In this document: one piece after another, positions 44,577 through 63,022 of the stretch
Layout: the number at the start of each line of letters is the position of its first letter
How positions within the stretch are numbered: position 1 is the stretch's first letter
Assembly (NCBI GenBank): GCA_964569045.1
Contig: CAZMSR010000006.1
Coordinates: 1-63,123, forward strand
Direction: 5' to 3'
Length of the DNA: 63,123 nucleotides
Source: an uncultured Gammaproteobacteria bacterium
GTDB lineage: Bacteria > Patescibacteriota > Patescibacteriia > Patescibacteriales > BS150m-G62
Made by a program: the position numbers and the translations under genes
Notes under the pieces: model-generated
Seen by the model: the letters and a program-made list of their open reading frames with translations, nothing else
What the model was told of the DNA's origin: nothing
Databases searched by the model: none

Positions 44577-44594
44577 TGATTAAAAAGTAATTAT

Positions 44595-46607: not shown

Positions 46608-47069
46608 ATGTGTTATAAAAATAAACAGGGTTTTACATTAATAGAATTACTGGTAGTTATTGCTATTATTGGTTTAATTTCGACTTTATCAATTATTGCT
46701 TTGAATGGTGCTAGGTCAAAATCTAGAGATTCACGAAGAGTGTCGGATATTAAGCAAATGCAAGCTGCGCTCGAGCTTTATTATAATGATCGGTATTCAT
46801 ATCCTCCCGGAGAGAACGTGGATATTGCAAATAAGTGTTTAGATTCAAATGAGCTTGGTTTTAATACTTCTTGTACGGCTGGTGCCCTTCTGTACATAAC
46901 TACTATACCAAGTACGCCTCAACCAAATGGAGATAAAGAATATACTTATTCAAATACTGATGACAATAAAGCAAGAACTTATAAGTTAGAATATTCATTA
47001 GAAAATTCTACCGGAGGTATTCCAGCCGGCCTTCAAACAGCATCGCAAGCCGGAATTTACGGTGGTTAA
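46608..47069 (+). CDS. type IV pilin paralog
   Basis: Leader MCYKNKQG then FTLIELLVVIAIIGLI. Collinear with pilin 1 and matching at roughly 60 percent of positions by eye, with two Cys in the mature part. Confidence 0.88.
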   Translation: MCYKNKQGFTLIELLVVIAIIGLISTLSIIALNGARSKSRDSRRVSDIKQMQAALELYYNDRYSYPPGENVDIANKCLDSNELGFNTSCTAGALLYITTIPSTPQPNGDKEYTYSNTDDNKARTYKLEYSLENSTGGIPAGLQTASQAGIYGG

Positions 47070-47151: not shown

Positions 47152-47175
47152 AATCCCTTTAAAGGGATTTTTTTT
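47152..47175 (+). terminator. rho-independent terminator after pilin 2
   Basis: aatccctttaaagggatt palindrome followed by a run of eight T. Confidence 0.6.
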
Positions 47176-47197: not shown

Positions 47198-49234
47198 ATG
47201 AAAATAAATAAATACATAAATAAGTTTGGATTTTTTAGTATTTTGTTGATTGTTTTTTTGGTGCCAATTTATTTTTCTTATTTTGTAAGAGGGTATGATT
47301 TTTATGTATTACCAAAACAGGGTCTGTTTCATTTGCTCGTAATGTTTGGTGTGATTAGTTTTTTAGTTAATGTTTTTGTTAAAAAAAAATTTAAATGTAA
47401 GACTAGTATTGTTTTAAAAAAATTTTTATTTATTTTATTTTGTTTGTGTTTATCGTTATTGATTTCTGTATTATTTTCAGATACTCCACAAAGTAGTTTT
47501 TGGGGTGTTTTTTTGCGTGAACAAGGTCTTTATTCTTATTTATATTATATTGTCTTTTTTTTATTGATAATTTGTGTTGTAAAAACCGCTTCACAAATAG
47601 AGTATGTATTATTAGTTGTGCCTTTTTCTTCGTTTTTAATTGGAATTTACGGTCTGTTTGAATATTATGGATTATTTGAAGGGCATTTTGATGGTAGAAT
47701 TGCTTCTACATTAGGGCAGCCTAATTATTTTGGGCATTATTTAATTATGACATTTCCCGTATTAGTGTACTTTTGGTTTTTTTTAAAAAGAGGTGTGGCT
47801 TGGAAGATTTTTCTTTTAATGGTTATGATTTTGCAATTTGCGAATTTAATTTTTACTTATAGTCGAGCAGCATGGTTAGGGTTTATTGTTGCTTTAGGTA
47901 TTTTTTTGGTAGTTTTATGCTTTTTAAAATTTTTTAGTTTAAATAAAAAAAATAATGTTTTAACAAATAACATTAAAATTAAAAGGAGGCCTTTACTAAT
48001 TATTTTTTCTATTATTTTTTTCGTTTTTATTTTCTTTTTTAATAATGATTTTTTTTACAATAGATTAGCTAGTTTTGCTGATTTTAGTTCAGGTTCTATT
48101 AAAAATAGGTTAATATATTGGAGTGCTTCTATTAATGAGTTAAGAGATATGGATGCTAAAAAAGTTCTATTTGGATATGGACCGGATGCAATGGGAAATG
48201 TTTTTGCAAAGCATTATAAAAAAGAAAATGCTATTTTTGAAAAAATAAACACCTATCCTAGTCGGGCTCATAATTTCATATTTGATTCACTGCTTCAATT
48301 TGGAATTGTTGGATCCTTAATGTTTTTTTTATTTTTTTATTATGTTTTAGAGGGCGCAATATTTAGTATTAAGAAATATTCACCTAACTCTAAAGAGCGT
48401 TGGTTGATTTATGCTTTATTGATAGCTATTTTTGCACATTTTATAAATAATTTATTTAGTTTTTCTTTGGTTGTTACTAGTATTTATACTTATTTATACT
48501 TAGCTTTGCTTTGTAGATTGTCTTATAGAGAAATAATAAATTGTAGTTTTAGTAATAATTGTGTGCGGTTTTTATTTTTTTATAGGTTTATTATTTGTTT
48601 GATTTTAATTTTTTTACTATGTATAGTTTATAATTACGATTATAAATTTTTAAAAGCTGATTATTTTCGTTTTCAAGCAGAAAAAGCGTTTTTAGTAAAT
48701 GATTGTGATCGTTTTGCAAAAAATATTAAGAAGTCTATTGCTTTAAATTTTTATAAACTTAGATATAAGCAGGATTTTTTAGAGTATGGATCAAGGTGTT
48801 TGCTAAAAATAGAAGAAGAAACGGCTAAACAAATTTTGGTAAATGATTTGATTGATATTATTACTCAGATAAAGTTGTTAAGCCCTGATTATAGATCTAC
48901 AATAAGTGTAGCTCATACGTATTCATATCTAGGACTTCAAGTAAATCCTGTTTATTTTAAATTAGCAGAATTAGAATATTTGGCAGCAATTAATTTTAAT
49001 CCGGAGTTGAGTTTGCCATATCGTAATTTAGCTCAAGTATTGGCTTGGCAAGGTAAATATAGAGAAGCTTTAAAGTATTTAGAGGTTGGTTTAAGTAATA
49101 TGCCAAATGTTCGTGACTCTCGTTTAGAGCTCCAAGTTCATAAAGAACATAAGGAAGAAGTAAGACAAGAATTGGATGCGTTTAGAGGTATAAAAAATTA
49201 TATTATGACTCGCTTTTCTTTTTTTGAGCGTTAA
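47198..49234 (+). CDS. O-antigen ligase (Wzy_C) family membrane protein with C-terminal TPR domain
   Basis: GRIASTLGQPNYFGHYL, TYSRAAWLGF and SRAHNFIFDSLLQFGIVG in a polytopic N-terminal part. The C-terminal ~200 aa are TPR-like (AELEYLAAINFNPELSLPYRNLAQVLAWQGKYREALKYLEVGL). Confidence 0.75.
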   Translation: MKINKYINKFGFFSILLIVFLVPIYFSYFVRGYDFYVLPKQGLFHLLVMFGVISFLVNVFVKKKFKCKTSIVLKKFLFILFCLCLSLLISVLFSDTPQSSFWGVFLREQGLYSYLYYIVFFLLIICVVKTASQIEYVLLVVPFSSFLIGIYGLFEYYGLFEGHFDGRIASTLGQPNYFGHYLIMTFPVLVYFWFFLKRGVAWKIFLLMVMILQFANLIFTYSRAAWLGFIVALGIFLVVLCFLKFFSLNKKNNVLTNNIKIKRRPLLIIFSIIFFVFIFFFNNDFFYNRLASFADFSSGSIKNRLIYWSASINELRDMDAKKVLFGYGPDAMGNVFAKHYKKENAIFEKINTYPSRAHNFIFDSLLQFGIVGSLMFFLFFYYVLEGAIFSIKKYSPNSKERWLIYALLIAIFAHFINNLFSFSLVVTSIYTYLYLALLCRLSYREIINCSFSNNCVRFLFFYRFIICLILIFLLCIVYNYDYKFLKADYFRFQAEKAFLVNDCDRFAKNIKKSIALNFYKLRYKQDFLEYGSRCLLKIEEETAKQILVNDLIDIITQIKLLSPDYRSTISVAHTYSYLGLQVNPVYFKLAELEYLAAINFNPELSLPYRNLAQVLAWQGKYREALKYLEVGLSNMPNVRDSRLELQVHKEHKEEVRQELDAFRGIKNYIMTRFSFFER

Positions 49235-49240
49235 TATTGC

Positions 49241-50353
49241 ATGATTAATCAAGATAGTATTAAAAGAAATAAAGAGATTATTTTTAATAGTATTTGTCTA
49301 TTATTAGTTTACAAAGTTGTGATTATTATTGCAGCTTTTTTTTATTTTTATTATACATTTCATTATATTGAATTTGACATTAAATTGTTATTAAATTTTT
49401 GGACACAATGGGATGCTAAGCATTATTTAGATATTGCGAAAAATGGATATGATATAACAAAGGCAAATATGGCATTTTATCCATTGTATCCATTATTAAT
49501 TTATATTTTTAGTCCTTATTTTGGTTTTGAATTGTCTGCACATATAATAAATTCATTAGTTCAATTTGGGTTAATTTTGGGTCTGTATAAGTTAGCTTTA
49601 TTAGATCTTGATAGATGCGCTGCCTGGCGTGCTTGTTTTTATTTGTTACTTTTCCCGGCAGCAATTTTTTTTAATTCAATATATACTGAATCACTTTTTT
49701 TATTTTTTGCTGTATGGATATTTTATTATGCAAGATTGCGTAAATGGAGCGAGTTTAGTGCATTTGGTTTTTTTATCGGACTAACAAGAATTGAGGGTTT
49801 AGCTGTTATGCTTTTTGTTCTATTTGAGTATATGCAAGGTATAAAATTTAAATTTAATTTAATTAAATTAGACATGCTATATGTTTTTTCACCTTTATTT
49901 GGATTGTTAAGTTATTTGGTGTATTTGAAGGTGAGACATGGTGATTATTTTTTATTTTTAACTTCGCAGAGTGCATGGGGTAAGGAGTTTACTTTGCCAT
50001 GGAGTTCTATTAATAGTTATTTAGAAGTATTTTTTAATTCAACAACGCAAGCTTTTTACATTTCAAGAGATATTGATTTATTTTTTTTCTTATTTGGTGT
50101 TTTTGTGAGTGTGTGTCTAATGTTTATGCTGAGATTTTCTTATGGAATTTATTCTTTGTTTACGATTTTAATGGTTAGTTTTACCGGTGATTTAGTTTCG
50201 AGTAATCGGAGATTTTTATTGTTGTTTCCGGCTTTTATTTTGTTTGCAAAATGGGGAGAGGATCGTTATGTGAATTTTTTTATAATTTTTATATTTCAAG
50301 CTTTTTTCTTTTTAAATATGTTTAGGTTTATACATGGTTTTTGGGTTGGTTAA
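49241..50353 (+). CDS. polytopic membrane protein, PIG-V/mannosyltransferase-2-like (GT-C-type)
   Basis: 370 aa with ~9 hydrophobic segments. The loop motif WDAKHYLDIAKNGY resembles the WD..hYL.IAe.GY motif of PIG-V-type mannosyltransferases. Confidence 0.5.
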   Translation: MINQDSIKRNKEIIFNSICLLLVYKVVIIIAAFFYFYYTFHYIEFDIKLLLNFWTQWDAKHYLDIAKNGYDITKANMAFYPLYPLLIYIFSPYFGFELSAHIINSLVQFGLILGLYKLALLDLDRCAAWRACFYLLLFPAAIFFNSIYTESLFLFFAVWIFYYARLRKWSEFSAFGFFIGLTRIEGLAVMLFVLFEYMQGIKFKFNLIKLDMLYVFSPLFGLLSYLVYLKVRHGDYFLFLTSQSAWGKEFTLPWSSINSYLEVFFNSTTQAFYISRDIDLFFFLFGVFVSVCLMFMLRFSYGIYSLFTILMVSFTGDLVSSNRRFLLLFPAFILFAKWGEDRYVNFFIIFIFQAFFFLNMFRFIHGFWVG

Positions 50354-52217
50354 AATTAATTTTATGTTTTATGAGAAAATTAAAAAAGTAAAGGGTTGGA
50401 TTTTTTCAAGCTCTTTGTTTATGCTTATTCTTTGCCCCGGTTTTTTAAATGCTGGCAAGGATGTGCTTATTTTAGAAGTGTTAAGCGTTTGTTTTGGTGC
50501 TTTAAGTATTTTTTATTTTTTTAAAGTTAAGACAAGTTTTTTTCATAACAGATCTATAGATTTGCCTATTTTATTATTTTTGGGGTTGTTTTTGGTATTT
50601 GGTTTTTTTGGGATTGTTTTTTCTAAATCGTTATTTGTTAGCTTAGAGGCATGGTTCTTGTATTTAATGTATTTTTTAGTATTTATTATTGGCTCTAAAA
50701 TATTATTAACTCGTAAAATATTTAAACAGTATTTATTTTTGTGCGTATTAGCTTCGTTGGTTTTGTCTGTTGTCGGGCTAATGATATATATGACCGGTTC
50801 TTATAATCGTTTAACATCTGTTTTTTATTGGCCAAATCCGTTTGCTACATATTTATTAATGATGCTTCCTTTTATATTTTATTTATTAAAATGTGGAGAG
50901 TTGAAACAGAAGTATGTGGTTTTTATTAGTGCTCCTTTGATTTTTGCCGCCTTTTTGTTAACAGGTTCTAGAGCGGCTTATATTACTTTTATTTTTTTAA
51001 GTCTTTTTTTATTGTTTAGAGATTTTAAATATGTGCGAAAAAAATATAAAGTATTTATTTTAGTTTTTCTTTTGGTATTTAGTGTGGTTTTTTTAACAGG
51101 AAAAATTAAAAAAAATGATGATACTTTTTTAAGTAGAGAAATAAATAATAATGAAATTTTAGATGTATCTTCAAACATGCGTTTGAGTTACTATGATGCC
51201 GGATTAACTATTGTATATGATTATTTATTTTTTGGAGTTGGATTAGGAACTTTTAGTCATTTGTATCCCATATATCAAGAAAGTCCAATCACTGCAACTA
51301 AATATATACATAATTGGTATTTAGAGATTTTACTTGAAATGGGGGTCTTTGTATTTTTAACCTTTTTATTATTTTTTTTATTTGTATTTAAAAAGATTGC
51401 GTCTTATTTTTACAGTGATGGGGTTGTTGTGTTGTTTTTGTCGATTAGTGCTTATCTGATGCATAATTTTGTTGATATTGGTTCGCATTATTTGGCTAAT
51501 AATGTAGTTTTTTGGTTTAATTTAGGACTTTTAGTTAATGTGTTTAGTAAATTTGACTCTAAAAGAAAGGTTTTGGTTAATAAAGAAAGTATATTTTTTA
51601 AATATTTATTTTTATTTATTGGAATTTTAATTTTTATAAAAGGATTTATTGGATTGCACTCCGCAAGTAATTATAATTTAGGCAAAAAGGCACAATTTTA
51701 TGGAGATTATATAAAAGCAAATGAATATTTTGAAAAATCTGTTTTAATATATCCATATATTGAAAAGGTAAGAGATTTAGGTATTAATTATTTAATTCTT
51801 GCTTCTTTAGAAAGCGATGTTTTAGTAAGAAATTTTTATTATTCAAGGCTTCAAGAGATAACAAGTTTTTTAGTTAGACATGAAGGGTTGAACGCATTAA
51901 ATTATGAGTTAAAAGGAAAATTTTATGAAAGCATGAATAATTTTAAAAAAGGGGAGAAAGCTTATACAAAAGCCGTAAATTTAAATAAATTTAGTCCAAG
52001 ACATACAATAAATTTAGCTAGTATTTTAATTTTAAGAGAAGAGCACAAGAGAGCTATTGAGTTAATAGATAATTTTTTTATTCATTATCCGGAAGATGTA
52101 ATTGAAAGAAAAAGAATAAAAATTTTGCCTAATCAAAAAATAACATCCGGCATTAAAGAGCAGATTAATTTACTTCGTTACTTACAAAAATTATCGCTAA
52201 ACTTGCTTTACCAATAA
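50334..52217 (+). CDS. O-antigen ligase (Wzy_C) family membrane protein with C-terminal TPR domain (second copy)
   Basis: NRLTSVFYWPNPFATYLL, TGSRAAYITF, YIHNWYLEILLEMGVFVF. The C-terminus is TPR-like (GDYIKANEYFEKSVLIYP; KGEKAYTKAVNLNKFSPRH). An alternative start at ATG 50364 is possible. Confidence 0.75.
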   Translation: MVFGLVKINFMFYEKIKKVKGWIFSSSLFMLILCPGFLNAGKDVLILEVLSVCFGALSIFYFFKVKTSFFHNRSIDLPILLFLGLFLVFGFFGIVFSKSLFVSLEAWFLYLMYFLVFIIGSKILLTRKIFKQYLFLCVLASLVLSVVGLMIYMTGSYNRLTSVFYWPNPFATYLLMMLPFIFYLLKCGELKQKYVVFISAPLIFAAFLLTGSRAAYITFIFLSLFLLFRDFKYVRKKYKVFILVFLLVFSVVFLTGKIKKNDDTFLSREINNNEILDVSSNMRLSYYDAGLTIVYDYLFFGVGLGTFSHLYPIYQESPITATKYIHNWYLEILLEMGVFVFLTFLLFFLFVFKKIASYFYSDGVVVLFLSISAYLMHNFVDIGSHYLANNVVFWFNLGLLVNVFSKFDSKRKVLVNKESIFFKYLFLFIGILIFIKGFIGLHSASNYNLGKKAQFYGDYIKANEYFEKSVLIYPYIEKVRDLGINYLILASLESDVLVRNFYYSRLQEITSFLVRHEGLNALNYELKGKFYESMNNFKKGEKAYTKAVNLNKFSPRHTINLASILILREEHKRAIELIDNFFIHYPEDVIERKRIKILPNQKITSGIKEQINLLRYLQKLSLNLLYQ

Positions 52218-52285
52218 ATTGTTACTACTAATCTCACATTTGTTCAAAAATAAAATCAGGCTCAGTAATATTTTTTTATAAAAAA

Positions 52286-53917
52286 ATGAAAAAATTAATT
52301 AGAAATTTATTTAATAAAGAAGGTTTTTTAGTATTTTTAATATTGGCGTTGATTATTGTTGTTAGAGTAGTGTATTTGTTAAATTGGAAATCTTTTTTAG
52401 ATGGTGATGAATCTTTGGTCGGGGTTATGGCAAAGCATATTACTGAAGGAAAAAGCAGCCCAATTTATTATTATGGGCAATCGTATATGGGAACATTAGA
52501 GCAGTATGGCGCGGCAATGTTGTTTGTTGTTTTTGGAGCAAGTCCTTTTGTATTAAAATTGGTTCCTTTATTATATTATAGTTTATCTTTGTGGTTAGTG
52601 AGTCTAATAATTCAAAAGTATTACAAAAAAGCGGGTTCAGTTTATTACCTTTTTTTTAGTGTATTTCCTTCATTGTTTGTAATTGTTTGGAGTACAAAAG
52701 CCAGGGGTGCATATTCTGAAATGGTATTTTTATGTATCTTATTTCTTTATTTCTTATTTAAATTTCAGGAAAAACCTAAGCTTAGTTACTTATATTTTTT
52801 ATCGATTATTTTTGGTTTTAGTGTTTATCTTAATTTACTTTGTCTGCCATTTTATATTGTTATATTGATATTGCACTCGCTTGATGCTCGTAAAGCTCAA
52901 AGTGTGTATTCTTTAGTTGATAGAATAAAGTTATTTTGTATTTCGGTAGTGTCTTTTTTAATTGGATATCTTCCAGCCATAGTATATATATTTAATAACC
53001 CGGGAAAAGATTATATGCATTTTGATTTTCCGGAGATTGGTCAAATATTTGATAATATTATAATTTTATTCTCTGAGCTAATCCCATTAATTTTAGGAAG
53101 ATATTTAAATAATTTTGATCAGTTGTCAATATTTGTAATTGCAGAATTAATTCTATTTAGTCTGTCTTTATTTGCTATCATTACTATTTTACTCGAGTAT
53201 AGAAAGTGTTTTTATGGTTTGCTTTTTTTTAAAAAAAGTAAATATCCAAAAATATTTTATTTAATTGTTATTTTTTTTGTTTATGTGGTGGTTTTGGTGT
53301 TTTCTCCTTTTGAGCTACATATGCCAAATCCTCAGATTGTGTTACAAAATAGTCATAATTTTACTGAATTAGTAAATGAATTGCCATTTTATCTTCCATT
53401 GGTTCGATACATGATATTTGGAATAATTATTATTCCGTTAATGCTTTTTATAGCCTTTAATGTCATAAAAGAAAAAAGTAATAAATTGGCCAGTGTTTAT
53501 ATTTGGTTTGTATTTTGTTCCGGGTTAGTAATTTCCTCTCAAACTATTTTTATAAATGATAATCAAGAGCTTTCTTATACTTACAAAGCTTTTTTAGTGC
53601 GAAAAGATTATTCAGAGTTAATTTTATTTTTAAATCAACATAATCTTTATTATGGGTTTGCAGATTATTATGATCAATGGAATATTAATTTTATATCAGG
53701 TGAGAGAATCCGGTTAGCTACTAGATCCTTGCCAAATTATGCCGGAGTTGATAATAGATATAACGATTATTTAGAGTTAGCAAATAGACACTCTCATAGA
53801 TTAGTAAATATCTATTATGATACTCAAGTGAGCAGTATACAAGAAGTTAGAAAAGAATATAATAAGGCCAGAAATAGTAATATTAAAATAATCAATGATT
53901 TTGTTGTAATTTATTAG
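52286..53917 (+). CDS. GT-C-fold membrane glycosyltransferase (ArnT/PMT-like)
   Basis: 543 aa, polytopic. The acidic motif FLDGDESLVGVMAKHI lies right after TM1. The C-terminal soluble domain YGFADYYDQWNINF is shared with the next gene. Confidence 0.6.
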   Translation: MKKLIRNLFNKEGFLVFLILALIIVVRVVYLLNWKSFLDGDESLVGVMAKHITEGKSSPIYYYGQSYMGTLEQYGAAMLFVVFGASPFVLKLVPLLYYSLSLWLVSLIIQKYYKKAGSVYYLFFSVFPSLFVIVWSTKARGAYSEMVFLCILFLYFLFKFQEKPKLSYLYFLSIIFGFSVYLNLLCLPFYIVILILHSLDARKAQSVYSLVDRIKLFCISVVSFLIGYLPAIVYIFNNPGKDYMHFDFPEIGQIFDNIIILFSELIPLILGRYLNNFDQLSIFVIAELILFSLSLFAIITILLEYRKCFYGLLFFKKSKYPKIFYLIVIFFVYVVVLVFSPFELHMPNPQIVLQNSHNFTELVNELPFYLPLVRYMIFGIIIIPLMLFIAFNVIKEKSNKLASVYIWFVFCSGLVISSQTIFINDNQELSYTYKAFLVRKDYSELILFLNQHNLYYGFADYYDQWNINFISGERIRLATRSLPNYAGVDNRYNDYLELANRHSHRLVNIYYDTQVSSIQEVRKEYNKARNSNIKIINDFVVIY

Positions 53918-53921
53918 TTTT

Positions 53922-55463
53922 ATGTTTTTTTATAAAAAAAGTATTTTTATTACCATATTTCTAATGTTTTGTATTTGTCTTACAAGGTTTGTGTTTCTTG
54001 ATAAGGCAGAATTATTTATTGACTCAGATGAGTCTTTAATTGGTGTGATGGGAAAACATATTTTAGATGGTAAACCGGTGCCTATTTTTTCTTATGGACA
54101 AGCATACAAAGGTACGTTTGAGTCAATAACCCATACTTTGTTTTTTAAGGTTTTTGGAATATCGTCATTTATTTTAAAGTTAGTGCCGTTTTTTTATTTA
54201 TTATTGTCAATATTATTGATTTGCGTTATTTTAAATAAATTTACTAAATTAAATTACAATAATTATTTGACACTGCTAATTTTTGTGCCTTTGTTTTCAT
54301 TAGTTATTTGTTTAAAAGCTGGGTATGGCATGGAAGTTGTGTTTTTTTGTTTTTTATTCTTACTGTTATTTTTTGAATTTAAACGAGAAAAAAACATAAA
54401 TTATTTATATTTAATGGCATTTATTGTTGGTTTTACTTTATATCTTCAAGCAATGTCGTTACCCTTTTTTCTTGTTGTTATGTATGTAGGTATTTTGGAT
54501 CAAAAACCAGGAAATAAGATTTTGAGAATTTCGTTTAAACACGTAATTATTGTTATCAGCTCTCTTGTTATAGGTTTTTCACCGGCTATTTATTTTAAAA
54601 TAATTTTTGGCTTTAATTATGATGTTAATTTAAAGCTAGATTTAGTTAATAATTTACTACATAACTTTAATTTAGTGATAAATAAAATTATTCCTGCTTT
54701 TTTTGGCGGATATGATTTTGAATGGGGTAGTTATAGTATTTTTTCTTTATCTGAGATTGTTTTGGTTTTTGTGGGTGTATTTGCTTTTTTGTATGCAATT
54801 TTTATAAAAAAAAAGGAGTTGTTTGATTTAATTTTTTTTAAAAAAAGAGACTTTAGTGCTGAAATTTATTTTTTAACTATTTTTATTGCTTATATAGTAA
54901 TTTTATTTGTGTCACCTTATGTTCGTGATATTTATAGCTTACGTTATTTGCTGACTATTGTTTTAATATATCCAATATTAATAATTATTGCAGAGAGAAA
55001 TTTGAGATGTATTTCAGTTTTGCTTTCTCAAGTATTTATTATTTTTTTTGTTTGTGGTTCGTTTATGTTAATGATGCAAATTTTTTTTATAAATAAAAAT
55101 ACAAACACTAAATTGTTTAGAGTTTTTTTTAATTCTTTTGAGTATAATGAGGTGATAGAATTTTTAATAGAGAATGATTATAAGTATGGGTTTGCAGATT
55201 ATTGGGATCAGTGGAATATTAATTTTTTATCTGAGGAAAAGATATCTTTAGCTGCATTTGAACCAGGAGATTATTGGCGTAACAGATATATACCATATTA
55301 TCATTCTGCAATAAACAGTCCTGATCCTGTTTATATATATAGACATCCGATTAAAAAAGAAAATTTTAACGTAATTTTGAGTTCTTTGCCTAGCGACTAT
55401 GAGTATATAATGATTAATAATTTTGTTGTATTTTATAAAGCTAGAGATTTTAAAAAGAGTTGA
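53922..55463 (+). CDS. GT-C-fold membrane glycosyltransferase, tandem paralog of 52286..53917
   Basis: FIDSDESLIGVMGKHIL after TM1, collinear TM pattern, C-terminal YGFADYWDQWNINF. Confidence 0.6.
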   Translation: MFFYKKSIFITIFLMFCICLTRFVFLDKAELFIDSDESLIGVMGKHILDGKPVPIFSYGQAYKGTFESITHTLFFKVFGISSFILKLVPFFYLLLSILLICVILNKFTKLNYNNYLTLLIFVPLFSLVICLKAGYGMEVVFFCFLFLLLFFEFKREKNINYLYLMAFIVGFTLYLQAMSLPFFLVVMYVGILDQKPGNKILRISFKHVIIVISSLVIGFSPAIYFKIIFGFNYDVNLKLDLVNNLLHNFNLVINKIIPAFFGGYDFEWGSYSIFSLSEIVLVFVGVFAFLYAIFIKKKELFDLIFFKKRDFSAEIYFLTIFIAYIVILFVSPYVRDIYSLRYLLTIVLIYPILIIIAERNLRCISVLLSQVFIIFFVCGSFMLMMQIFFINKNTNTKLFRVFFNSFEYNEVIEFLIENDYKYGFADYWDQWNINFLSEEKISLAAFEPGDYWRNRYIPYYHSAINSPDPVYIYRHPIKKENFNVILSSLPSDYEYIMINNFVVFYKARDFKKS

Positions 55464-55464
55464 T

Positions 55465-57027
55465 ATGAAAAAAGTATTTTATTTTCTAAATGTAAAATTT
55501 TTAGTATATGTTTTTTTTATTGCATATTTTATTATTGGGATTTTTTTGACACCTCATTATGGGTTATCATGGGACGAAGAAGTACAGCGTAAGAAAATCG
55601 GTGAAAACAATTATGAGTATATAATCGGAAATATTTCAGAATTGGATGAGTTTCATAGGTATTATGGACCAGTTTTTGAAATATTTTTAATTTTACCTGA
55701 AAAGTTGTTTAATATTGTTGATTCGCAAAAAATATATATATTAAGGCATTTTTTTACTTTTTTTGTTTTTTATATTGGGGTTGTTTTCTTTTTTTTAATA
55801 AATAAAAAGATTTTTAAGAGTGAAATTTATGCATTAATTGCTGTTTTAATGCTTGTATTGCATCCACGAATTTTCGGTCATTCTTTTTTTAATTCAAAAG
55901 ATATCCCTTTTTTGTCTTGTTTTATAATTAGTGTTTATAGTTTAAGGTTATTTTTAGAAAATAAAAATTATAAAACTGTTTTTTTGCATGCATTTGCATC
56001 GACTGTTTTAATCGGTATACGAGTTTTAGGGGTTATTATTCCTTTTTTAACTTTTGCTTTTTTAATTTTTGAATTGCTAATGATGAATAAATATTGTCTA
56101 ATGCAAAAAATATGTAAAAAATTTTGGATGTTATATTTTTTATTAGTTGGTGGGCTGGTTACTTTATTTTGGCCGCATCTTTGGAATAGCCCTGTTAGCG
56201 GCATTATTGATGCTTTTCAATTTATGAGTAATTTTAACTATTATTTGGATGTTTTGTATCTTGGTAATTATATTAGAGCAGATAATTTACCATGGCATTA
56301 TGTTCTTATTTGGATTTTTATATCAACTCCTATTGTATATCTGGTATTTTTTGTTTTTGGAATAATAACTATTTTTAAAAAAATATGCAATAATAAAGTT
56401 AGCTGTTTTAATTTAAATAAAATTGATTTTTTGTTAATTATTGTTTGGTTTTTTGTGCCAATTATTTTAGTTTTAGTTTTAGGGTCAGTAATTTATGATG
56501 ATTGGAGGCATTTATATTTTGTTTATCCGGCATTCTGTGTTATTGCAACACTGGGGGTTTGGCAAATTGTTAATAATTTAAAAATAAAGAATTTTAAACT
56601 TGGGTTGGTAGGTGTATTATTTGTTTTTTTGAATTTCACATTTGTAATTCGCGAGATTTATAAATTCCATCCTAATGAAAATGTTTATTTTAACAGTATT
56701 GCAAAATTATTTGAAGGTAATTTAAGATATTATTTTGATATTGATTATTGGGGTTTGTCTTATAGGCAAGCGCTTGAATATATTCTTTTAAATGATTCAT
56801 CTAAAATTATTAACATTTATGTGCTAAATTTTCCAGGTGAGCTTAATAGAAAAATTCTTATCAAAAATTCTAGACAAAGAATAAAATATGTAAAAAATAT
56901 TAGTGAAGCTGACTATTTTATTAATGATTATAGGTTTTATAAAGATGAGTTTGCACCGGGAAGTACTTTTTATTCTCTATCTATTGATAATATTAGTATA
57001 ATAGATGTATTTAAGTTAAAGATGTAG
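55465..57027 (+). CDS. GT-C-fold membrane glycosyltransferase (GT39/ArnT-like)
   Basis: HYGLSWDEEVQRK after TM1, ~11 hydrophobic segments, C-terminal soluble domain. The start is taken at ATG 55465 because the track start 55423 is TTG inside the previous gene. Confidence 0.65.
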   Translation: MKKVFYFLNVKFLVYVFFIAYFIIGIFLTPHYGLSWDEEVQRKKIGENNYEYIIGNISELDEFHRYYGPVFEIFLILPEKLFNIVDSQKIYILRHFFTFFVFYIGVVFFFLINKKIFKSEIYALIAVLMLVLHPRIFGHSFFNSKDIPFLSCFIISVYSLRLFLENKNYKTVFLHAFASTVLIGIRVLGVIIPFLTFAFLIFELLMMNKYCLMQKICKKFWMLYFLLVGGLVTLFWPHLWNSPVSGIIDAFQFMSNFNYYLDVLYLGNYIRADNLPWHYVLIWIFISTPIVYLVFFVFGIITIFKKICNNKVSCFNLNKIDFLLIIVWFFVPIILVLVLGSVIYDDWRHLYFVYPAFCVIATLGVWQIVNNLKIKNFKLGLVGVLFVFLNFTFVIREIYKFHPNENVYFNSIAKLFEGNLRYYFDIDYWGLSYRQALEYILLNDSSKIINIYVLNFPGELNRKILIKNSRQRIKYVKNISEADYFINDYRFYKDEFAPGSTFYSLSIDNISIIDVFKLKM

Positions 57028-57157
57028 TATTTATTCACTGTTTAAAACTACTTGTTTCAAAGTTTTTATAAAATATTAAAAATTATATATTTTTAATATT
57101 TGATTGTAATTTTTTGAAAAAATAGTTTTTATCGGTGACTTGTTATTAGGTGTAGTT

Positions 57158-57895
57158 ATGCTTATTGAGTTTTGTTTGCCAGTATATAATGAAGAGCAAA
57201 TTATTGAATCAAATGTGCTTAGATTGCTTGATTTTTGCAAGTTAAAGTCATACGAATTTGATTGGTATATTATTATTATTGACAATAATTCAAAAGATCA
57301 AACAAGTAAGATTGCGGATTTATTGTCACGATCATATCCGAATAGAATTAAGTCTGTGAGAATCGGAAAGTCTGGGAAGGGGTTAGCTTTAAAGTATTGG
57401 TGGCATATAAGCGAGGCTGATGTACTTGCTTATATGGATATTGATTTAGCTGTTTCGCTTGAATATTTGGATAGACTTATTAATCCGATTGTATTTGGTA
57501 AATATGATTTAGTTATTGGATCGCGTTTATTGTCTGATTCTGAGGTAGATAGGTCTATGTTTCGTGAGTTTAACTCAAGAGCTTATAGTAAGCTTTCTCA
57601 GTTAATGTTGGGTCATGAGTATAAAGATTTGCAATGCGGATTTAAAGCAGCTAAGACTAGCATGTTAAAGAGATATACTCCTTTAATTAAAAATGATAAA
57701 TGGTTTTTTGATACAGAGATAGTTAGTTTTTTTAATTTAAATAATAATAAAATATTAGAAATTCCGGTTAATTGGAAAGAGTCAAGGTATGACGCTCGTA
57801 AAAGTAAGATGAGTGTGTTGCGCGATGGGTTTGATTTTCTTGTGAATTTATTAGAACTTAGGAAAAGAATTCGTGACTACAAGAGAAATATTTAA
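57158..57895 (+). CDS. GT2 glycosyltransferase, polyprenyl-phosphate sugar synthase-like (Dpm1/GtrB type)
   Basis: LPVYNEE, IIIIDNNSKDQT, YMDIDLAVS, LVIGSR. Start at ATG 57158 (track start 57140 is TTG). Confidence 0.8.
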   Translation: MLIEFCLPVYNEEQIIESNVLRLLDFCKLKSYEFDWYIIIIDNNSKDQTSKIADLLSRSYPNRIKSVRIGKSGKGLALKYWWHISEADVLAYMDIDLAVSLEYLDRLINPIVFGKYDLVIGSRLLSDSEVDRSMFREFNSRAYSKLSQLMLGHEYKDLQCGFKAAKTSMLKRYTPLIKNDKWFFDTEIVSFFNLNNNKILEIPVNWKESRYDARKSKMSVLRDGFDFLVNLLELRKRIRDYKRNI

Positions 57896-57925
57896 TTATT
57901 ATTGTTAATTCAAATATTTTGTAAC

Positions 57926-58660
57926 ATGGATTATATTGACTATATTAAAAATAAGACTCAGTTGAATTTTTGGTATAGAGCTCGTTTATCTTTAATAGAG
58001 AATTTATTGGCACAAGTTTTGAATAAAAATTCAAAAGCTACAATATTAGATATAGGTTGTGGAACAGGGACAGAGCTTCGAGTGCTTGAAAAATACGGTA
58101 AGGTTGTTGCACTTGATAAAAATTCTAAATCACTTAAAATTGCTAATAAAGTATGTTCACAGATTTTACAAGTTGATATTGAAAAAGAATCATTAGGAAG
58201 CAGGGAGTATGATGTAATATGTTGTTTTGATGTGCTAGAGCACCTAGATAATGATTCTCAAGCACTTGCTAATATATATAAATCTTTAAAAAAAGGTGGT
58301 TATTTATTGTTTTCGGTGCCTGCGTATCAATTTTTGTTTTCTTCGCATGATTATGCTTTAGGACATGTGCGGCGATATTCAAAAAAAGATATAGAAGAAA
58401 AAATTAAGTTATTAAATTTTTCAATTTATAGATTAAGCTATTGGAATTCTTTGCTTTTTCCAGTAATTTTAACTTTAAGAATTGTTAAGAAGTTTTATTT
58501 TAAAATAAAGAAAAAGCATAAACACCAAACTGAGACATTTAAATTACGGACTTTTTTTGATAATTTATTGTTTAATGTATTAAATTTTGAGTCAAATTTA
58601 ACTCAGTCAAAATTAAAATTACCATTTGGACTTACTATTTACGGTATAGTTAGGAAATAA
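57926..58660 (+). CDS. class I SAM-dependent methyltransferase
   Basis: ILDIGCGTGTEL, YDVICCFDVLEHLDN, LKKGGYLLFSVPA. Start at ATG 57926 (track start 57902 is TTG). Confidence 0.8.
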   Translation: MDYIDYIKNKTQLNFWYRARLSLIENLLAQVLNKNSKATILDIGCGTGTELRVLEKYGKVVALDKNSKSLKIANKVCSQILQVDIEKESLGSREYDVICCFDVLEHLDNDSQALANIYKSLKKGGYLLFSVPAYQFLFSSHDYALGHVRRYSKKDIEEKIKLLNFSIYRLSYWNSLLFPVILTLRIVKKFYFKIKKKHKHQTETFKLRTFFDNLLFNVLNFESNLTQSKLKLPFGLTIYGIVRK

Positions 58661-58693
58661 TTAGCATTGAATCATTATTTAGTACCAAGCTAG

Positions 58694-58731
58694 TATAACT
58701 AGATGATTAGTGAAAATTTACACCACCTTAG
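58694..58731 (+). repeat. intergenic repeat family, copy C
   Basis: tataactagatgattagtgaaaatttacaccaccttag. Its last 32 nt (58700-58731) match 63038-63069 at 30 of 32 positions. Confidence 0.7.
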
Positions 58732-58737
58732 TACTAA

Positions 58738-59463
58738 ATGGTGAGTGGATACAATAATTTTATGTTACTAAGCGTTGTTATTCCTGTTTTTAACGAGGAA
58801 AAGACAATTTTGGAAATACTTAAAAAAATTGAAAATGTCCCTATTAATAAGGAGATAATTATTGTTGATGATTTCTCTAGTGATAATACAAGAAACATAC
58901 TTTTAGCACTTGAAAAAAAATACAGCATAATTTATCAAGAACAGAATTTTGGTAAAGGCGCTGCTATTAGAGCTGGGTTTAAACGAGCAAAAGGGGATGT
59001 GATAGTGATTCAAGATGCAGATTTAGAATATGATCCGTGTGATTTTTTTAAATTAATTCAGCCTATTATTTTGGGTGAGTATAGTTGCGTTTATGGATCT
59101 AGATTTTTAAATAGTAATTTTAAACCTCAGTATTTTTTGGCTTATGTTGGAAATAAATTTTTATCTTTATTAACAAGTATTTTGTATGGTCAAAAAGTAA
59201 CAGATATGGAGACTTGTTATAAAATGTTTAAAAGAGATGTTTTAGCTGATTTTGAACTAAGTTCTAATGGTTTTGATATTGAACCTGAAATAACAGCTAA
59301 AATTATTTTAGCAGGCTATAAAATTAAAGAAATCCCAATAAATTATAAAGGGCGAAGTTTTGAAGAAGGTAAAAAAATTGGCTGGCGTGATGGTGTTTTA
59401 GCAGTATTTGTTTTACTTAAATATTTTTTTAATAGGCAGGAAAGCGCAAAAAGAGTGATGTAG
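58738..59463 (+). CDS. GT2 glycosyltransferase, polyprenyl-phosphate sugar synthase-like (Dpm1/GtrB type)
   Basis: LSVVIPVFNEE, IIIVDDFSSDNT, VIQDADLEYDP, VYGSRF, hydrophobic C-terminal tail. An alternative start at ATG 58762 is possible. Confidence 0.85.
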   Translation: MVSGYNNFMLLSVVIPVFNEEKTILEILKKIENVPINKEIIIVDDFSSDNTRNILLALEKKYSIIYQEQNFGKGAAIRAGFKRAKGDVIVIQDADLEYDPCDFFKLIQPIILGEYSCVYGSRFLNSNFKPQYFLAYVGNKFLSLLTSILYGQKVTDMETCYKMFKRDVLADFELSSNGFDIEPEITAKIILAGYKIKEIPINYKGRSFEEGKKIGWRDGVLAVFVLLKYFFNRQESAKRVM

Positions 59464-59519
59464 GGATGGTTGCCTAACATGTTAAGTTTTTGCATAGTTA
59501 TTAGGAGGCGATTTTAAAA

Positions 59520-60167
59520 ATGCTCGATCAATTTTTAGCTAATCAATCAGAAGCTTTTTTTACTATTAATTTAGTGCCTAGTATTAGCTATAATCAATTT
59601 AATTTTGTTTTACTGGTTGGATTTTTTTTTATTTTTGTATTGTTTATTTTGTTTTTTTTAAAAAAAAGAATTAGATTTATAAATGTTTATTTTAATAATC
59701 TTTTCTTAATAATAACGTTTATTTTTTGGCTTCCTTTGTATATTATTTTTACTTATAATAATTTGCATGATGCTAAAGAAAATTATAGTTATATTGAAAG
59801 AAGGCTTAAGCATAGTCATAAAAAAATCATAAGATATTGTAATCTCGGTTTTGCTATGGGAGATGGTGATAATTGGTGTAAATTGTTAACATTTATTAAT
59901 TTTGTTAAGAGGGAGGTAGAGGAGAAAAAAAGTGTTTTTATTTTATCTCGCGATATTTATTTACCATATTTGGTTTATGATCTGTATCCGTATTATAATG
60001 TTGTAAGTTCAATAAATGATGCTGATTATATTTTGCTTTATAATGACCCAAATTATTATAAAGACGGTCATGATTTGGTTAAAAGAGATAATGATGATTT
60101 TAAATTGGAAGATTATCTGGTGTACGATTATTACTCAGATCAAGCAGTGATTTTTTCTAAAAAGTAA
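59520..60167 (+). CDS. hypothetical membrane protein
   Basis: 215 aa with two hydrophobic helices followed by a Tyr/Asp-rich soluble part. No family recognised. Confidence 0.45.
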   Translation: MLDQFLANQSEAFFTINLVPSISYNQFNFVLLVGFFFIFVLFILFFLKKRIRFINVYFNNLFLIITFIFWLPLYIIFTYNNLHDAKENYSYIERRLKHSHKKIIRYCNLGFAMGDGDNWCKLLTFINFVKREVEEKKSVFILSRDIYLPYLVYDLYPYYNVVSSINDADYILLYNDPNYYKDGHDLVKRDNDDFKLEDYLVYDYYSDQAVIFSKK

Positions 60168-60173
60168 GTATAC

Positions 60174-61655
60174 ATGAAGCGTGAAAATAATATTGTAAAT
60201 AAGTTTAATTTTTTACTCGCATTTTTTTTATTTTCAATATTTAATTATTGTGTAATTCGCGCTATTTTTCTTTCAATAACTCATGATGAAGCTATTACCG
60301 TAATTTATCATGCGCAAGCAAGTTTAAGAGATATTTTTTATTTTAATGGTTCGATTTTAGCTAATAATCATCTTCTTAATACTGTGATGGTTAAATTTTT
60401 GAGTGCATTATTTGGTTTTAATGAGTTTGTTGTTAGATTACCTGCTTTATTAGGAGCTGCTTTGTATTTAAGTGGTGTTTATGTTTTTTCTTGGCGATTA
60501 TTTGCGTTTAATCAGCTTTATCGGTTTTCTTTAGTTTTTTTACTTGTAGCTAATCCTTTTTTGGTTGATTTTTTGTCTCTATCTCGCGGATATTCTTTGG
60601 CGCTTGGTTTTTTTATGTGGGGACTTTGTTTTGTTGTTGATTTTTTGCAAGAAGAAAATATTATGCAAAAAAGAAAAAAGCTTTTTATTACTTCTTTTTT
60701 GTTTGGTTCTTCGGTTTTATCAAATTTAGTTTTTTTAAATATTTTTTTAGCATTTTTAGTTACGCTATTAGTGGTCTTTGTTTTAAAATACAAAGAGCAA
60801 AAAAAATATGTTTATGAGAATGTAATGGCTAATTACTTGTTGCCGATTATGCCATCAATTTTGTTTATATTAATAATATTTACTTTTCCTGTTTTGAAAA
60901 TGGCAAGAGCTAATGAGTTGTATTTTGGGGGCGTAAACGGATTTTGGGGTGATACAATTAATAGTTTAGTTAAGTCTTTTTTTTATAATGTAAATTATTC
61001 ATTTTTTGGGCAAATTCAAGTGAAGTTTGGTTTGTTTGTGTTTATTGGCTTATTTGCAGTTATTTTGTATTATGTTGTTTTTAGATTAAAAAAGGAGATT
61101 AAAATTGAGTATTTGGTTGTAATTTTATTTTCTGTGTTTACTTGGCTAAGCATAGAGTTTCAGTTTATGTTGCTTGGGACTAAATATGTTGTTGGAAGGG
61201 CAGCTTTGTTTTTTTTGGTTTTTGGATACATATTGATTGTTATTTTGGCTAGTATTGCAAAAGAGAATTCCTTAAAATGTAGCAATGTGATTAATATTTG
61301 TTGCTTTATATTGGTTGTTGTCTTTTTTGTTCATTTTTTAAATACTTTAAATTATTATAAAACCTATACTTGGAGTTATGATAGTAATTCAAAGGATGCA
61401 ATGCTGTATATAAAGAAAATTGTTGATAGAGGGTATAAGGTAGGCTCAATTGGAGCAAGTAAAGAATATTGGCCAAGTTTAAATTTTTATAAATTTAAGT
61501 ATGATTTAAATGAAATTAATTTGGTTGGAAGATCTGGACCAGATGGGAAACATGATGTTTATTATCTTACTTTAAGAGATTTGCCGATTATTAAAAAATA
61601 TAATAAAAAAAATATAAGAGAATATAAGAAAAGTGGTGCACTACTAGCGCTGTAA
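60174..61655 (+). CDS. GT-C-fold membrane glycosyltransferase (ArnT/PMT-like)
   Basis: 493 aa, polytopic. Acidic motif ITHDEAITVIYH after TM1 and a C-terminal soluble domain. Confidence 0.6.
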   Translation: MKRENNIVNKFNFLLAFFLFSIFNYCVIRAIFLSITHDEAITVIYHAQASLRDIFYFNGSILANNHLLNTVMVKFLSALFGFNEFVVRLPALLGAALYLSGVYVFSWRLFAFNQLYRFSLVFLLVANPFLVDFLSLSRGYSLALGFFMWGLCFVVDFLQEENIMQKRKKLFITSFLFGSSVLSNLVFLNIFLAFLVTLLVVFVLKYKEQKKYVYENVMANYLLPIMPSILFILIIFTFPVLKMARANELYFGGVNGFWGDTINSLVKSFFYNVNYSFFGQIQVKFGLFVFIGLFAVILYYVVFRLKKEIKIEYLVVILFSVFTWLSIEFQFMLLGTKYVVGRAALFFLVFGYILIVILASIAKENSLKCSNVINICCFILVVVFFVHFLNTLNYYKTYTWSYDSNSKDAMLYIKKIVDRGYKVGSIGASKEYWPSLNFYKFKYDLNEINLVGRSGPDGKHDVYYLTLRDLPIIKKYNKKNIREYKKSGALLAL

Positions 61656-61675
61656 GTGAAAATTAATTAACAAGT

Positions 61676-63022
61676 ATGGGAATGTATGAATTTAAATTAA
61701 TTTTATTTTTTTTATCTATTTTTTTTCCGGGTTATTTGTTGACCTCGTTTTTGTTAAAAGGGGGGCAATTTTCATTTTTGTTTAAGCTAGCTTTGGCTTA
61801 TGGATTGGGAATTTATTTTGTAGTAATTCAGATTTTTATCTGGATGTTTGTTTTTGGGGTTAGCTTTTCGATTTTTTGGTTTTGGTTATTGTTTATTACA
61901 GAAGTGATTATTATTTTTGATATTTTTAGGAGAGGTAAAAACTTCAAGTGTAAAATTGAGATTATAAATTATATTAAAAGGTTTTTTTTAAAAGTTAGGT
62001 TAAAAGAGGCTTTGCTTTTGCTATTAATTCTATTTCAGATTATTTTTTTGTTATTTAATGCCTATTCTCGCCCGGTTGCTACATTTGATAGTGTTGCAAC
62101 TTGGGTGTATAAGGCTAAAATTCTTTATTTTGAAAATCAAGTAGAGTTAAATGATAAAACAAGTGATATTTATTTAGTTAGTGAATCTCATAATAATTAT
62201 CCTTGGCTTGTACCTCTTGTACAATTTTGGCTTTTTAATGTATTGGGTGAATTTAATGAAATTGTTGTTAATTATATTATCGTTTGTTTTTTTGTCTCAG
62301 TATTAATTGTTCTATTTTATTTCTTAAGAAGGTATCAAAACGTTGTTAATTCTTTGGTGTTAGTTTTTTTACTAAGCTCAATGCCTTTATTTTTTTATCA
62401 TGGATACAACGTATATGCTGATTTGATTCTTGCTTATTATGTTTTGTGTTCTTTTGGTTTTTTATTTTTGTGGCTTGAAGAGCGTGATAATCGATTTTTA
62501 GCAGTGAGCGCTATTTTTTTGGCAATAACATTGTTTGTAAAGTCGGAAGGTGTTATTTTTATTGTTAATGCTTGCTTACTTGTGTTATTAAATTTATTTT
62601 TTAAGGGTAAATTTTTTAAGAAGTTTGTATATTTTGTTGGCTTAATTTTTTTAATTTTGTCTCCTTGGGAATTTTTTAGAGCAAAATATTCTTTGGGTAT
62701 TTTAAATGAAGGTAATAATTTTGAGCTACATTCTGAAGTGCTACCACAATTTTTTTCTTCTTTTTTTATAACAAATAGTTTTAATCTTTGGTGGTTTTTG
62801 GTAGTGTTGGTTTTTATTTTTAATGTTGTAGGCATTGTTAAGCAAAATAATTTGTTGTTTTCGTGGTTGGCGTTAATTTTGCCTATTTTTTTGTATTTAT
62901 TGATTTATTTATTTACTGATTCATATTTAACAGTTTTAAATTATACAGCAATTATGCGAAATTTGTTAACAGTTGTTCCTTTGTCTGTGTTGGTTGTTGG
63001 CAAAAGTCTGAAAGCAAGGTAG
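61676..63022 (+). CDS. polytopic membrane protein, possible GT-C-type enzyme
   Basis: 448 aa with ~12 hydrophobic segments and the loop FDSVATWVYKAKILY. Called from topology and context only. Confidence 0.45.
   Translation: MGMYEFKLILFFLSIFFPGYLLTSFLLKGGQFSFLFKLALAYGLGIYFVVIQIFIWMFVFGVSFSIFWFWLLFITEVIIIFDIFRRGKNFKCKIEIINYIKRFFLKVRLKEALLLLLILFQIIFLLFNAYSRPVATFDSVATWVYKAKILYFENQVELNDKTSDIYLVSESHNNYPWLVPLVQFWLFNVLGEFNEIVVNYIIVCFFVSVLIVLFYFLRRYQNVVNSLVLVFLLSSMPLFFYHGYNVYADLILAYYVLCSFGFLFLWLEERDNRFLAVSAIFLAITLFVKSEGVIFIVNACLLVLLNLFFKGKFFKKFVYFVGLIFLILSPWEFFRAKYSLGILNEGNNFELHSEVLPQFFSSFFITNSFNLWWFLVVLVFIFNVVGIVKQNNLLFSWLALILPIFLYLLIYLFTDSYLTVLNYTAIMRNLLTVVPLSVLVVGKSLKAR

Follow-up and report, generated by a model that had tools for sequence, protein, structure and literature searches.

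The island at positions 52286–63022 of the window (the whole 63,123-nt stretch of contig CAZMSR010000006.1 that was analysed) encodes five large polytopic membrane proteins, two enzymes of glycosyltransferase family GT2, a methyltransferase and a small membrane protein, and it lies inside a pilus operon of a member of the Patescibacteria (candidate phyla radiation, CPR). The evidence supports the classification of all five polytopic proteins as GT-C-type glycosyltransferases, two of them by structural models and three by paralogy, Pfam matches or family membership, and both GT2 enzymes are probably polyprenyl-phosphate sugar synthases. We consider it rather likely that these proteins glycosylate at the outer face of the membrane using lipid-phosphate-linked donors, the best candidate acceptor being a pilin or a glycan added to the pilin by Wzy_C enzymes. 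Window genes are named below by their start position (gNNNNN), and locus numbers (L001 and so on) refer to the related loci or contigs that were compared with the window.

An earlier description of this DNA, made from the letters alone (the sequence-only reading), had counted ten co-directional genes in the island; the coordinates and the common direction stand, but there are nine open reading frames (ORFs), all on the + strand and spaced by 1–130 nt. The starts used for 55465, 57158 and 57926 are ATG codons internal to slightly longer ORFs beginning with TTG, and they match the start points of the orthologues. In gene order, the island comprises g52286 (52286–53917; 543 residues, ∼12 transmembrane (TM) helices and a C-terminal α/β domain), its tandem paralogue g53922 (53922–55463; 513 residues), g55465 (55465–57027; 520 residues, from a PMT_2-like family), the first GT2 gene (57158–57895), a methyltransferase gene (57926–58660), the second GT2 gene (58738–59463), the small membrane-protein gene g59520 (59520–60167), g60174 (60174–61655; 493 residues) and g61676 (61676–63022; 448 residues). 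A hydropathy scan found ∼12 or more hydrophobic segments in each of the five large proteins and none over the threshold in the two GT2 enzymes and the methyltransferase. No promoter signal above that of shuffled sequence was obtained, and a terminator scan gave nothing convincing within the island.

The fold of two of the polytopic proteins was assessed by structure prediction and comparison with the PDB using Foldseek, a check that the sequence-only reading had proposed. The AlphaFold model of g60174, based on 36 homologues, has a pLDDT of 92.9 and a pTM of 0.93. All 28 of its 28 best matches are GT-C enzymes, including ArnT (PDB entry 5ezm; E = 3e-6, TM-score 0.54) and ALG12 (TM-score 0.57), with AglB/STT3, DPY19, AftB, Pmt4 and Emb proteins among the lower matches. 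The AlphaFold2 model of g52286 had only seven sequences to draw on and is usable (pLDDT 79); here too the best matches are GT-C enzymes in 21 of 21 cases, namely PglB (PDB entry 5ogl; 1e-6), AglB, ArnT (5ezm; TM-score 0.50), STT3, ALG12 (TM-score 0.53) and ALG9. For the two models together, the top GT-C matches have TM-scores of 0.47–0.57, and the structural alignments show only 10–17% identity to any solved GT-C structure. Searching the PDB by sequence profile, with the alignments of three GT-C families or with g61676 as query, returned no matches; structure comparison alone was informative.

The remaining three proteins were placed by sequence relationships. g53922 is 33% identical to g52286 over 494 residues (E = 3e-67), and the alignment takes in the C-terminal domain as well as the DxDE motif. 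g61676 matches the Pfam family PMT_2 with 33.8 bits, above the cut-off of 26.1, and its orthologue does so with 37.6 bits. Direct Pfam evidence for the others is thin: the PMT_2 scores of g52286 (21.8 bits) and g55465 (18.7 bits, E = 0.002) are sub-threshold, and there is no direct Pfam match for g53922 or g60174. g55465 nevertheless belongs to a large family (7385 representative homologues at E values up to 1e-3), and among its 31 aligned members 25 match PMT_2 and four match PMT (PF02366); a PMT_2 match was also found for seven of the 36 g60174 homologues. Comparison of the g60174 and g52286 families using hhalign gave a probability of 95.8%, with THDEA pairing with DGDES and RGY with ARG, and the g61676 family gave probabilities of 14% and 5% against other families. 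The family of g52286 and g53922 looks like a near-orphan from the sequences retrieved: a search of an index of 5.8 billion proteins, which depends on shared words, found six proteins including the query, and a hidden Markov model (HMM) of the family added one member.

Four acidic motifs noted in the sequence-only reading as lying directly after the first TM helix are all present in the named genes, each following the first hydrophobic helix: DGDES in g52286 (residues 39–43, nt 52400–52414), DSDES in g53922 (residues 34–38, nt 54021–54035), SWDEE in g55465 (residues 35–39, nt 55567–55581) and THDEA in g60174 (residues 36–40, nt 60279–60293). In these four proteins a Lys/Arg-rich N-terminal tail precedes the first helix, which is followed by the acidic loop that carries the motif; by the positive-inside rule the motifs should thus face the outside. 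The g60174 family has Asp38 and Glu39 among its invariant residues in the 36 homologues, together with Asn64, His66, Arg88, Arg138, Gly139, Tyr140 and Arg342. Asp41 and Glu42 are invariant in the seven members of the g52286 family, and the 31 members of the g55465 family have an invariant Asp37 and a Glu38 that is at least 90% conserved. In g61676 the corresponding stretch (TFDS, nt 62081–62092) comes after the fourth helix, behind an N-terminal extension of three helices and a loop that is strongly basic; its Asp138, in the context RPVAT[F/Y]DS, is invariant in four orthologues. As these residues are conserved across the family alignments, the motifs are not chance occurrences.

If the polytopic proteins were transporters or other membrane proteins, with acidic motifs that are coincidental, the empty profile searches of the PDB and the absent or sub-threshold Pfam matches of g53922, g60174, g52286 and g55465 would be easily accommodated. 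The Foldseek results speak otherwise: the top matches are almost exclusively GT-C enzymes, and transporters appear among the matches of either model only at a probability of 0.15 or less. Together with the invariant acidic residues and the family-level PMT_2 matches, this makes such an alternative highly improbable. None of the structure or HMM searches pointed to a family other than glycosyltransferases, and the GT-C assignment proposed from sequence has thus been borne out by structure, paralogy and PMT_2 matches, with g61676 included.

The marks of the known subfamilies were also sought. No window protein matches PF02366 (PMT) or MIR, no island protein matches the NCBIfam model for ArnT and the string WWDxG (or WWD) that marks STT3/PglB is found in none of the island proteins. 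PglB and AglB are among the top structural matches of g52286 but are no better than ArnT or ALG12. As the marks of PMT, ArnT and STT3/PglB are not seen, we classify the polytopic proteins as GT-C enzymes that resemble ArnT and PMT and belong to uncharacterised families.

That the GT-C enzymes would use lipid-linked sugar donors is suggested by the adjacent two GT2 genes, which the sequence-only reading had assigned as polyprenyl-phosphate sugar synthases from their DxD and DADLEYDP motifs. The first (Glycos_transf_2, 72.7 bits) carries a DID motif at residues 100–102 of the 251-residue ORF g57140, the longer form of the gene at 57158; the second, g58738 (Glycos_transf_2, 122 bits), has DADLEYDP at residues 93–100 (nt 59014–59037). 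Neither has a TM helix. In the PDB, g58738 is most similar to the Pyrococcus furiosus dolichyl-phosphate mannose synthase (PfDPMS; PDB entry 5mlz, 3.8e-19 over residues 6–213), followed by ArnC (∼1e-14) and GtrB (5e-10); g57140 gives the same three, with E values of 6.9e-9, 1.6e-7 and 7.5e-5, respectively. The alignment of g58738 to PfDPMS extends through residue 213, into a C-terminal region resembling R..G(E)SK. NCBIfam matches that span ∼200–220 residues are mainly to AglJ (dolichyl-phosphate hexose transferase; 125 bits for g58738), ArnC and PpgS, with PgfS reaching ∼160; most other GT2 families in NCBIfam match the N-terminal half only, and an arsenosugar-type GT2 model reaches ∼140 residues. 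These best matches over the full catalytic domain (DPMS, ArnC, GtrB and AglJ) support the assignment of both enzymes as probable synthases.

Between the two GT2 genes, the gene at 57926 encodes a class I S-adenosylmethionine-dependent methyltransferase, as had been read from the sequence (Methyltransf_23, 78 bits; Methyltransf_11, 65 bits), and its orthologue holds the same position in L005. The 215-residue product of g59520 had been described as a membrane protein of no assignable family, and it has no Pfam or NCBIfam match; a large protein search gave one homologue only. Its two TM helices are predicted to leave both termini outside, with a basic cytoplasmic loop between them and an external domain containing two invariant cysteines. 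Orthologues of g59520 always lie between the GT2 gene and the g60174 homologue (in L005, L009 and L011), and hhalign gave 1% against the g60174 family. It is a candidate accessory subunit; by analogy, we would guess at a role comparable to that of TfpX, discussed below.

The island is nested inside a pilus operon. Upstream of it are two major-pilin genes on the + strand (45989–46459 and 46608–47069; N_methyl, 41 and 36 bits), which are the candidate acceptors, each followed by a terminator-like hairpin (46506–46553 and 47152–47169). These hairpins would fit high pilin transcription plus read-through into the glycosylation genes. Beginning 129 nt past the second pilin gene, and also on the + strand, are a Wzy_C/TPR protein (47198–49234), a PIG-V-like GT-C enzyme (49241–50353; Mannosyl_trans2, 39.6 bits) and a second Wzy_C/TPR protein (50334–52217); the two Wzy_C domains score 61 and 74 bits. 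The match of the Wzy_C proteins to WaaL (PDB entry 7tpg) is weak (E = 0.14), and from their sequences they may be oligosaccharyltransferases or polymerases/ligases. The estimate of about eight extracytoplasmic glyco-enzymes with 47198–52217 included is confirmed as five GT-C enzymes in the island, two Wzy_C/TPR proteins and the PIG-V-like enzyme.

The far side of the island lies beyond the window. Contigs from several samples that share 11.4 kb with the window at 100% identity run past its end, and downstream of g61676 they encode PilD (Peptidase_A24), a 479-residue protein, three or four minor pilin-like proteins, LigA, GatC and GatA (L001, 11669–16466). Since PilD and the minor pilins directly follow on identical contigs, the island sits within the pilus operon, between the pilins and Wzy_C enzymes on one side and pilD and the minor pilins on the other, and the window ends in the middle of that operon. 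The contiguity with the pilus locus is therefore stronger than had been claimed: pilus genes flank both sides, and two relatives keep the arrangement.

In the first of these relatives (L005, ∼50% amino-acid identity) the gene order is that of the window minus the PIG-V-like gene. The second, a Black Sea Patescibacteria metagenome-assembled genome (MAG; GCA_016784175.1, L009/L010), has two pilin genes, a Wzy_C gene, a GT2–Wzy_C–TPR fusion, a reverse-strand GT2 gene and a GT2–polytopic fusion, and continues with homologues of g59520, g60174 and g61676, then PilD and the rest; g52286, g53922, g55465, g57140 and the methyltransferase are absent. One of the fusions (L009, 3253–5730) joins a GT2 domain to a Wzy_C/TPR protein. 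In the other (L009, 6824–9262) an orthologue of g58738 (72% identity) is fused to a 575-residue polytopic domain with the motif PGDGGDSFLFLW after its first helix; this domain has no Pfam or NCBIfam match, and hhalign gave 11% and 1% against the g52286 and g55465 families. As GCA_016784175.1 keeps only some of the genes, gene order and conservation lead us to distinguish a core module (GT2 58738, 59520 and the GT-C enzymes 60174 and 61676) from a variable module (the GT-C enzymes 52286, 53922 and 55465, GT2 57158 and the methyltransferase). Between genomes the flanking pilus proteins are 61–83% identical and the GT-C proteins 42–52%. An apparently truncated methyltransferase gene in L004 (∼6410–6420) was rejected as a natural variant, the break being a gap in the scaffold, filled with N.

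More distant relatives were sampled in two ways. A search for loci with a g60174 homologue, made with a seven-sequence subset of the alignment, covered 80 genomes from many phyla; a GT2 resembling g58738 lies within 10 kb of the g60174 homologue in 24 of them, with an E value below 1e-50 in 13 of those. A 2.5-kb Taylorbacteria contig contains the GT2–59520–60174 triple, and in a non-pilus locus a homologue of g55465 (41% identity) directly follows a GT2 gene. In a MAG of candidate division SR1 (L019), translation table 11 yields the g60174 homologue and the adjoining GT2 only in short pieces, possibly because UGA is a sense codon in SR1. CPR pilus loci were surveyed by a metagenome search anchored on the 479-residue protein encoded beside PilD. 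In one of these loci (L097) a GT-C enzyme (3e-9 with the g52286-family HMM, RADEL after helix 1) and a GT2 lie between pilin genes, just before pilD; in another (L099), genes for a polytopic protein, for a GT2 (7e-68) and for a methyltransferase come just before a pilin gene and pilD. A GT2 gene precedes a pilin gene in L094, and Wzy_C, methyltransferase and GT4 genes precede pilD in L092.

Several of these results weigh against the reading given at the outset. The GT-C status of g55465 comes from a weak direct match plus matches at the family level. Both GT2 enzymes fall below every equivalog cut-off (61 and 43 bits for the ArnC model PRK10714, against 529) and lack the C-terminal TM anchor of GtrB, ArnC and PfDPMS, ending instead in a short hydrophobic or amphipathic helix only. 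No GtrA-like flippase was recognised in the window, either by Pfam (PF04138 included) or as an SMR- or MATE-type protein or in a check of small ORFs, and no priming phosphoglycosyltransferase was recognised anywhere in the window. Gene neighbourhood is the evidence that points to the pilin as the putative acceptor, and of the 80 loci with a g60174 homologue, 79 have no nearby pilus genes, the exception being a Patescibacteria MAG. Members of the g60174 and g55465 families occur widely in phyla and at loci that have no pilus genes, so that as families they are not pilin-specific. Finally, eight of the related CPR loci (L093, L106, L116, L121, L123, L136, L154 and L159) have no insert at the junction between pilins and pilD; the island is kept in the pilus operon by two relatives, and the majority of CPR relatives that share the pilus synteny lack it at this site.

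Of these points, those concerning the GT2 pair would suit ordinary peripheral GT2 enzymes that extend a lipid-diphosphate glycan in the cytoplasm, with the GT-C donors made elsewhere: neither protein has a TM helix and the specific NCBIfam matches are all far under their cut-offs. We judge this improbable. The full-length matches are mainly to polyprenyl-phosphate synthases, with an alignment that reaches the R..G(E)SK-type motif; the genes lie close beside GT-C genes, both here and in other phyla; and the g58738 orthologue in L009 is fused to a polytopic domain. Polyprenyl-phosphate sugar synthases without TM helices also exist, examples being human DPM1 and the catalytic domain of mycobacterial Ppm1.

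The flippase bears on a second alternative, a role like that of the Gtr serotype-converting systems, in which an undecaprenyl-diphosphate oligosaccharide from the GT4/Wzx cluster would receive side-branch sugars from the GT-C enzymes, before or after its transfer by Wzy_C. The window does contain a Wzx-type flippase within a complete cluster for cytoplasmic assembly, as well as two Wzy_C enzymes, and a periplasmic three-component precedent is available (PMC11127046). The GtrA- or MATE-type flippase component that such a role calls for was not found in the window, in keeping with the sequence-only reading, which had seen no GtrA-like protein: there is no Pfam match and no plausible small ORF with four TM helices. 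Small multi-TM ORFs considered as GtrA candidates were rejected, since each of them runs antisense to an annotated gene and matches nothing in Pfam. In addition, 21 kb and a set of housekeeping genes separate the GT4/Wzx cluster from the island, and five GT-C enzymes far exceed the known seroconversion modules. We regard this role as possible but doubtful; it overlaps with outer-face glycosylation as we propose it, is not exclusive of it and is compatible with either acceptor.

The acceptor is the subject of a third alternative, which keeps the same enzymology and directs it to an envelope glycopolymer or lipoglycan (as for Ppm1 with PimE, Mpt and Emb/Aft) or to S-layer or general surface proteins, the pilus position being accidental, a permissive insertion site. 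Besides the mostly non-pilus contexts of the g60174 and g55465 homologues in many phyla and the absence of the island from most related pilus loci, the base composition is in its favour: the GC content is 0.25–0.29 in the island (47198–63022), as for a mobile glycan cluster, versus 0.31 in the pilus machinery, 0.35 in the pilins and 0.325 in housekeeping genes. Several GT-C enzymes acting on one lipid-sugar donor are, moreover, the classic pattern of polymer building. Against it, glyco-genes have been inserted independently between pilins and pilD in at least four related loci (L005, L009, L097 and L099), with differing gene sets, and no genes for an LCP ligase or a TagGH-type exporter were seen beside the island. 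The Wzy_C genes are also directly 3′ of the pilins; in P. aeruginosa, tfpW and the gene of the Wzy_C-type pilin glycosylase, tfpO, are both directly 3′ of pilA. We therefore consider a non-pilus acceptor somewhat unlikely and prefer the pilin, or a glycan carried by it, because the island sits between the pilins and Wzy_C enzymes and pilD and the minor pilins, because differing glyco-modules have repeatedly been inserted at this junction and because of the P. aeruginosa TfpW/TfpO precedent.

In the mechanism that we propose, the GT2 enzymes 57158 and 58738 would each transfer a single sugar from its nucleotide-linked form to polyprenyl phosphate inside the cell, and the methyltransferase 57926 would probably methylate the sugar or the glycan. 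The lipid-linked sugars would then cross the membrane, and outside it the GT-C enzymes 52286, 53922, 55465, 60174 and 61676 would transfer sugars to the acceptor, with catalysis by the conserved Asp/Glu motif in their first outer loop; the outcome would be a decorated pilus surface. The enzymology, with synthases inside and GT-C enzymes outside, is well supported; the identity of the donors, their flipping, the order of action and the acceptor we infer. A more far-reaching version, which we offer tentatively and hold to be rather unlikely as a whole, is that in this clade of Patescibacteria the junction between pilins and pilD is a hot spot for interchangeable glycosylation modules, where up to six GT-C enzymes of the present organism build, step by step and outside the membrane, a methylated multi-sugar decoration of the pilus subunit using TM-less synthases, where GtrA is replaced by a new accessory (59520 or the fused domain of the L009 type) and where the glycan sets the specificity of an episymbiont's pilus for partner cells or phages.

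The closest precedents are in P. aeruginosa. TfpW is a pilin-modifying glycosyltransferase/oligosaccharyltransferase whose periplasmic loop 1 has a motif in common with Emb proteins, and it acts together with TfpX, a small accessory protein of the membrane, and with a component resembling GtrA (bioRxiv 10.1101/2020.04.19.049825). By description, both TfpW (the D-arabinofuranosyl transferase of Pa5196/PA7-type strains) and TfpO/PilO (strain 1244) are like the present system in that a membrane glycosyltransferase adjoins the major pilin gene. The TfpW type uses a lipid-phosphate monosaccharide donor and the TfpO type, with Wzy_C, a lipid-diphosphate oligosaccharide; here enzymes of both types follow the pilins. 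TfpX may have a counterpart, again by description, in the small membrane protein 59520 beside the core GT-C enzymes. Where P. aeruginosa has one enzyme, however, the present CPR bacterium has five to six of the GT-C type, along with a pair of donor synthases and a methyltransferase, and in place of the phosphoribosyl pyrophosphate/DprE donor route and the GtrA-like component of TfpW there are GT2 synthases and no GtrA-like gene that could be found in the window.

There is good documentation of three-component systems in which a GT2, a flippase and a GT-C enzyme modify completed glycans in the periplasm (PMC11127046). The GtrA/GtrB/Gtr* systems, CsbB/GtcA/YfhO (lipoteichoic acid) and the pentofuranose systems described there resemble the island in having a polyprenyl-phosphate sugar synthase, of GT2 type or other, and an outside GT-C enzyme encoded by adjacent genes, with modules that are swapped. 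They differ in their loci, which are those of O-antigen and teichoic acid rather than a pilus operon, and in that the island has no recognised flippase, synthases without a TM anchor and several GT-C enzymes per synthase. The pairs Ppm1/Dpm1 with PMT (GT39) and ArnC with ArnT (GT83) share with the island the PMT_2 signal and a first outer loop that carries a DE-type motif; the best structural matches of the GT-C enzymes include ArnT, and the GT2 enzymes match DPMS and ArnC best. PF02366, MIR and a score at the equivalog level for ArnT or ArnC are nevertheless missing here. In mycobacteria, Ppm1 with PimE, MptA–C, Emb and Aft forms a GT-C battery that works stepwise outside the cell on one or two polyprenyl-phosphate donors, and Emb, AftA and AftB are among the structural matches of the island enzymes; there, however, the acceptor is a lipoglycan or wall polymer, for which no polymer genes were seen here, and Emb and AftD are much larger than the island enzymes. 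What we describe is thus known chemistry in an unusual place and number.

Elsewhere in the window, the pilus machinery is encoded on the + strand at 38336–45806, with genes for PilM, a PilO-like protein, PilB, a response regulator and PilC. Two further genes in the pilMNO–pilB block have no Pfam or NCBIfam match, one for a 620-residue protein (39418–41280), which occupies the position expected for PilN, and one for a 118-residue protein (41862–42218). The 479-residue protein next to PilD (L001, 12454–13893) is secreted and rich in cysteine, with repeated motifs of the type GW(A/I)WS..GWISFN and no Pfam match. Its identity to the proteins of the two close relatives is 61–83%, it turns up widely beside PilD or PilM on CPR metagenome contigs (77 related loci, L092–L171), and it may be a pilus-associated surface protein.

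The cytoplasmic glycan-assembly cluster at 9357–26568 includes nine GT4 genes, a UDP-GlcNAc 2-epimerase, a GDP-mannose 4,6-dehydratase, an epimerase/reductase, four or five methyltransferases, a TylF-like fragment (24719–25054) and the Wzx-type flippase (25216–26568, − strand); it is possibly the source of a lipid-linked oligosaccharide for the Wzy_C enzymes. On the − strand, a gene for a Phd/YefM-type antitoxin (26837–27148) and a trio of tRNA genes (Lys-CTT, Met-CAT and Arg-TCG; 5301–5645) were also seen. Two opposed, overlapping ORFs at 2462–3106 (− strand) and 2709–3110 (+ strand) match nothing in Pfam, and the + strand one would encode a very hydrophobic protein.

Among the means by which cultivated Patescibacteria bind to and live on host bacteria, none is better documented than type IV pili. 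Glycosylation of the pilins of these organisms has so far been predicted and not shown (PMC11623550). The features that set the present locus apart are its size, its position in a CPR pilus operon, the modular turnover among relatives, the anchor-less synthases, a flippase that is not recognised and a near-orphan GT-C family. That the synthase–accessory–GT-C triple has no recognisable flippase bears on how polyprenyl-phosphate sugars cross membranes. About 16 kb (47198–63022) given over to eight membrane glyco-enzymes in the middle of a pilus operon suggests that surface sugars are a major variable in these organisms with tiny genomes, one with possible effects on host recognition, on phage evasion or on both.

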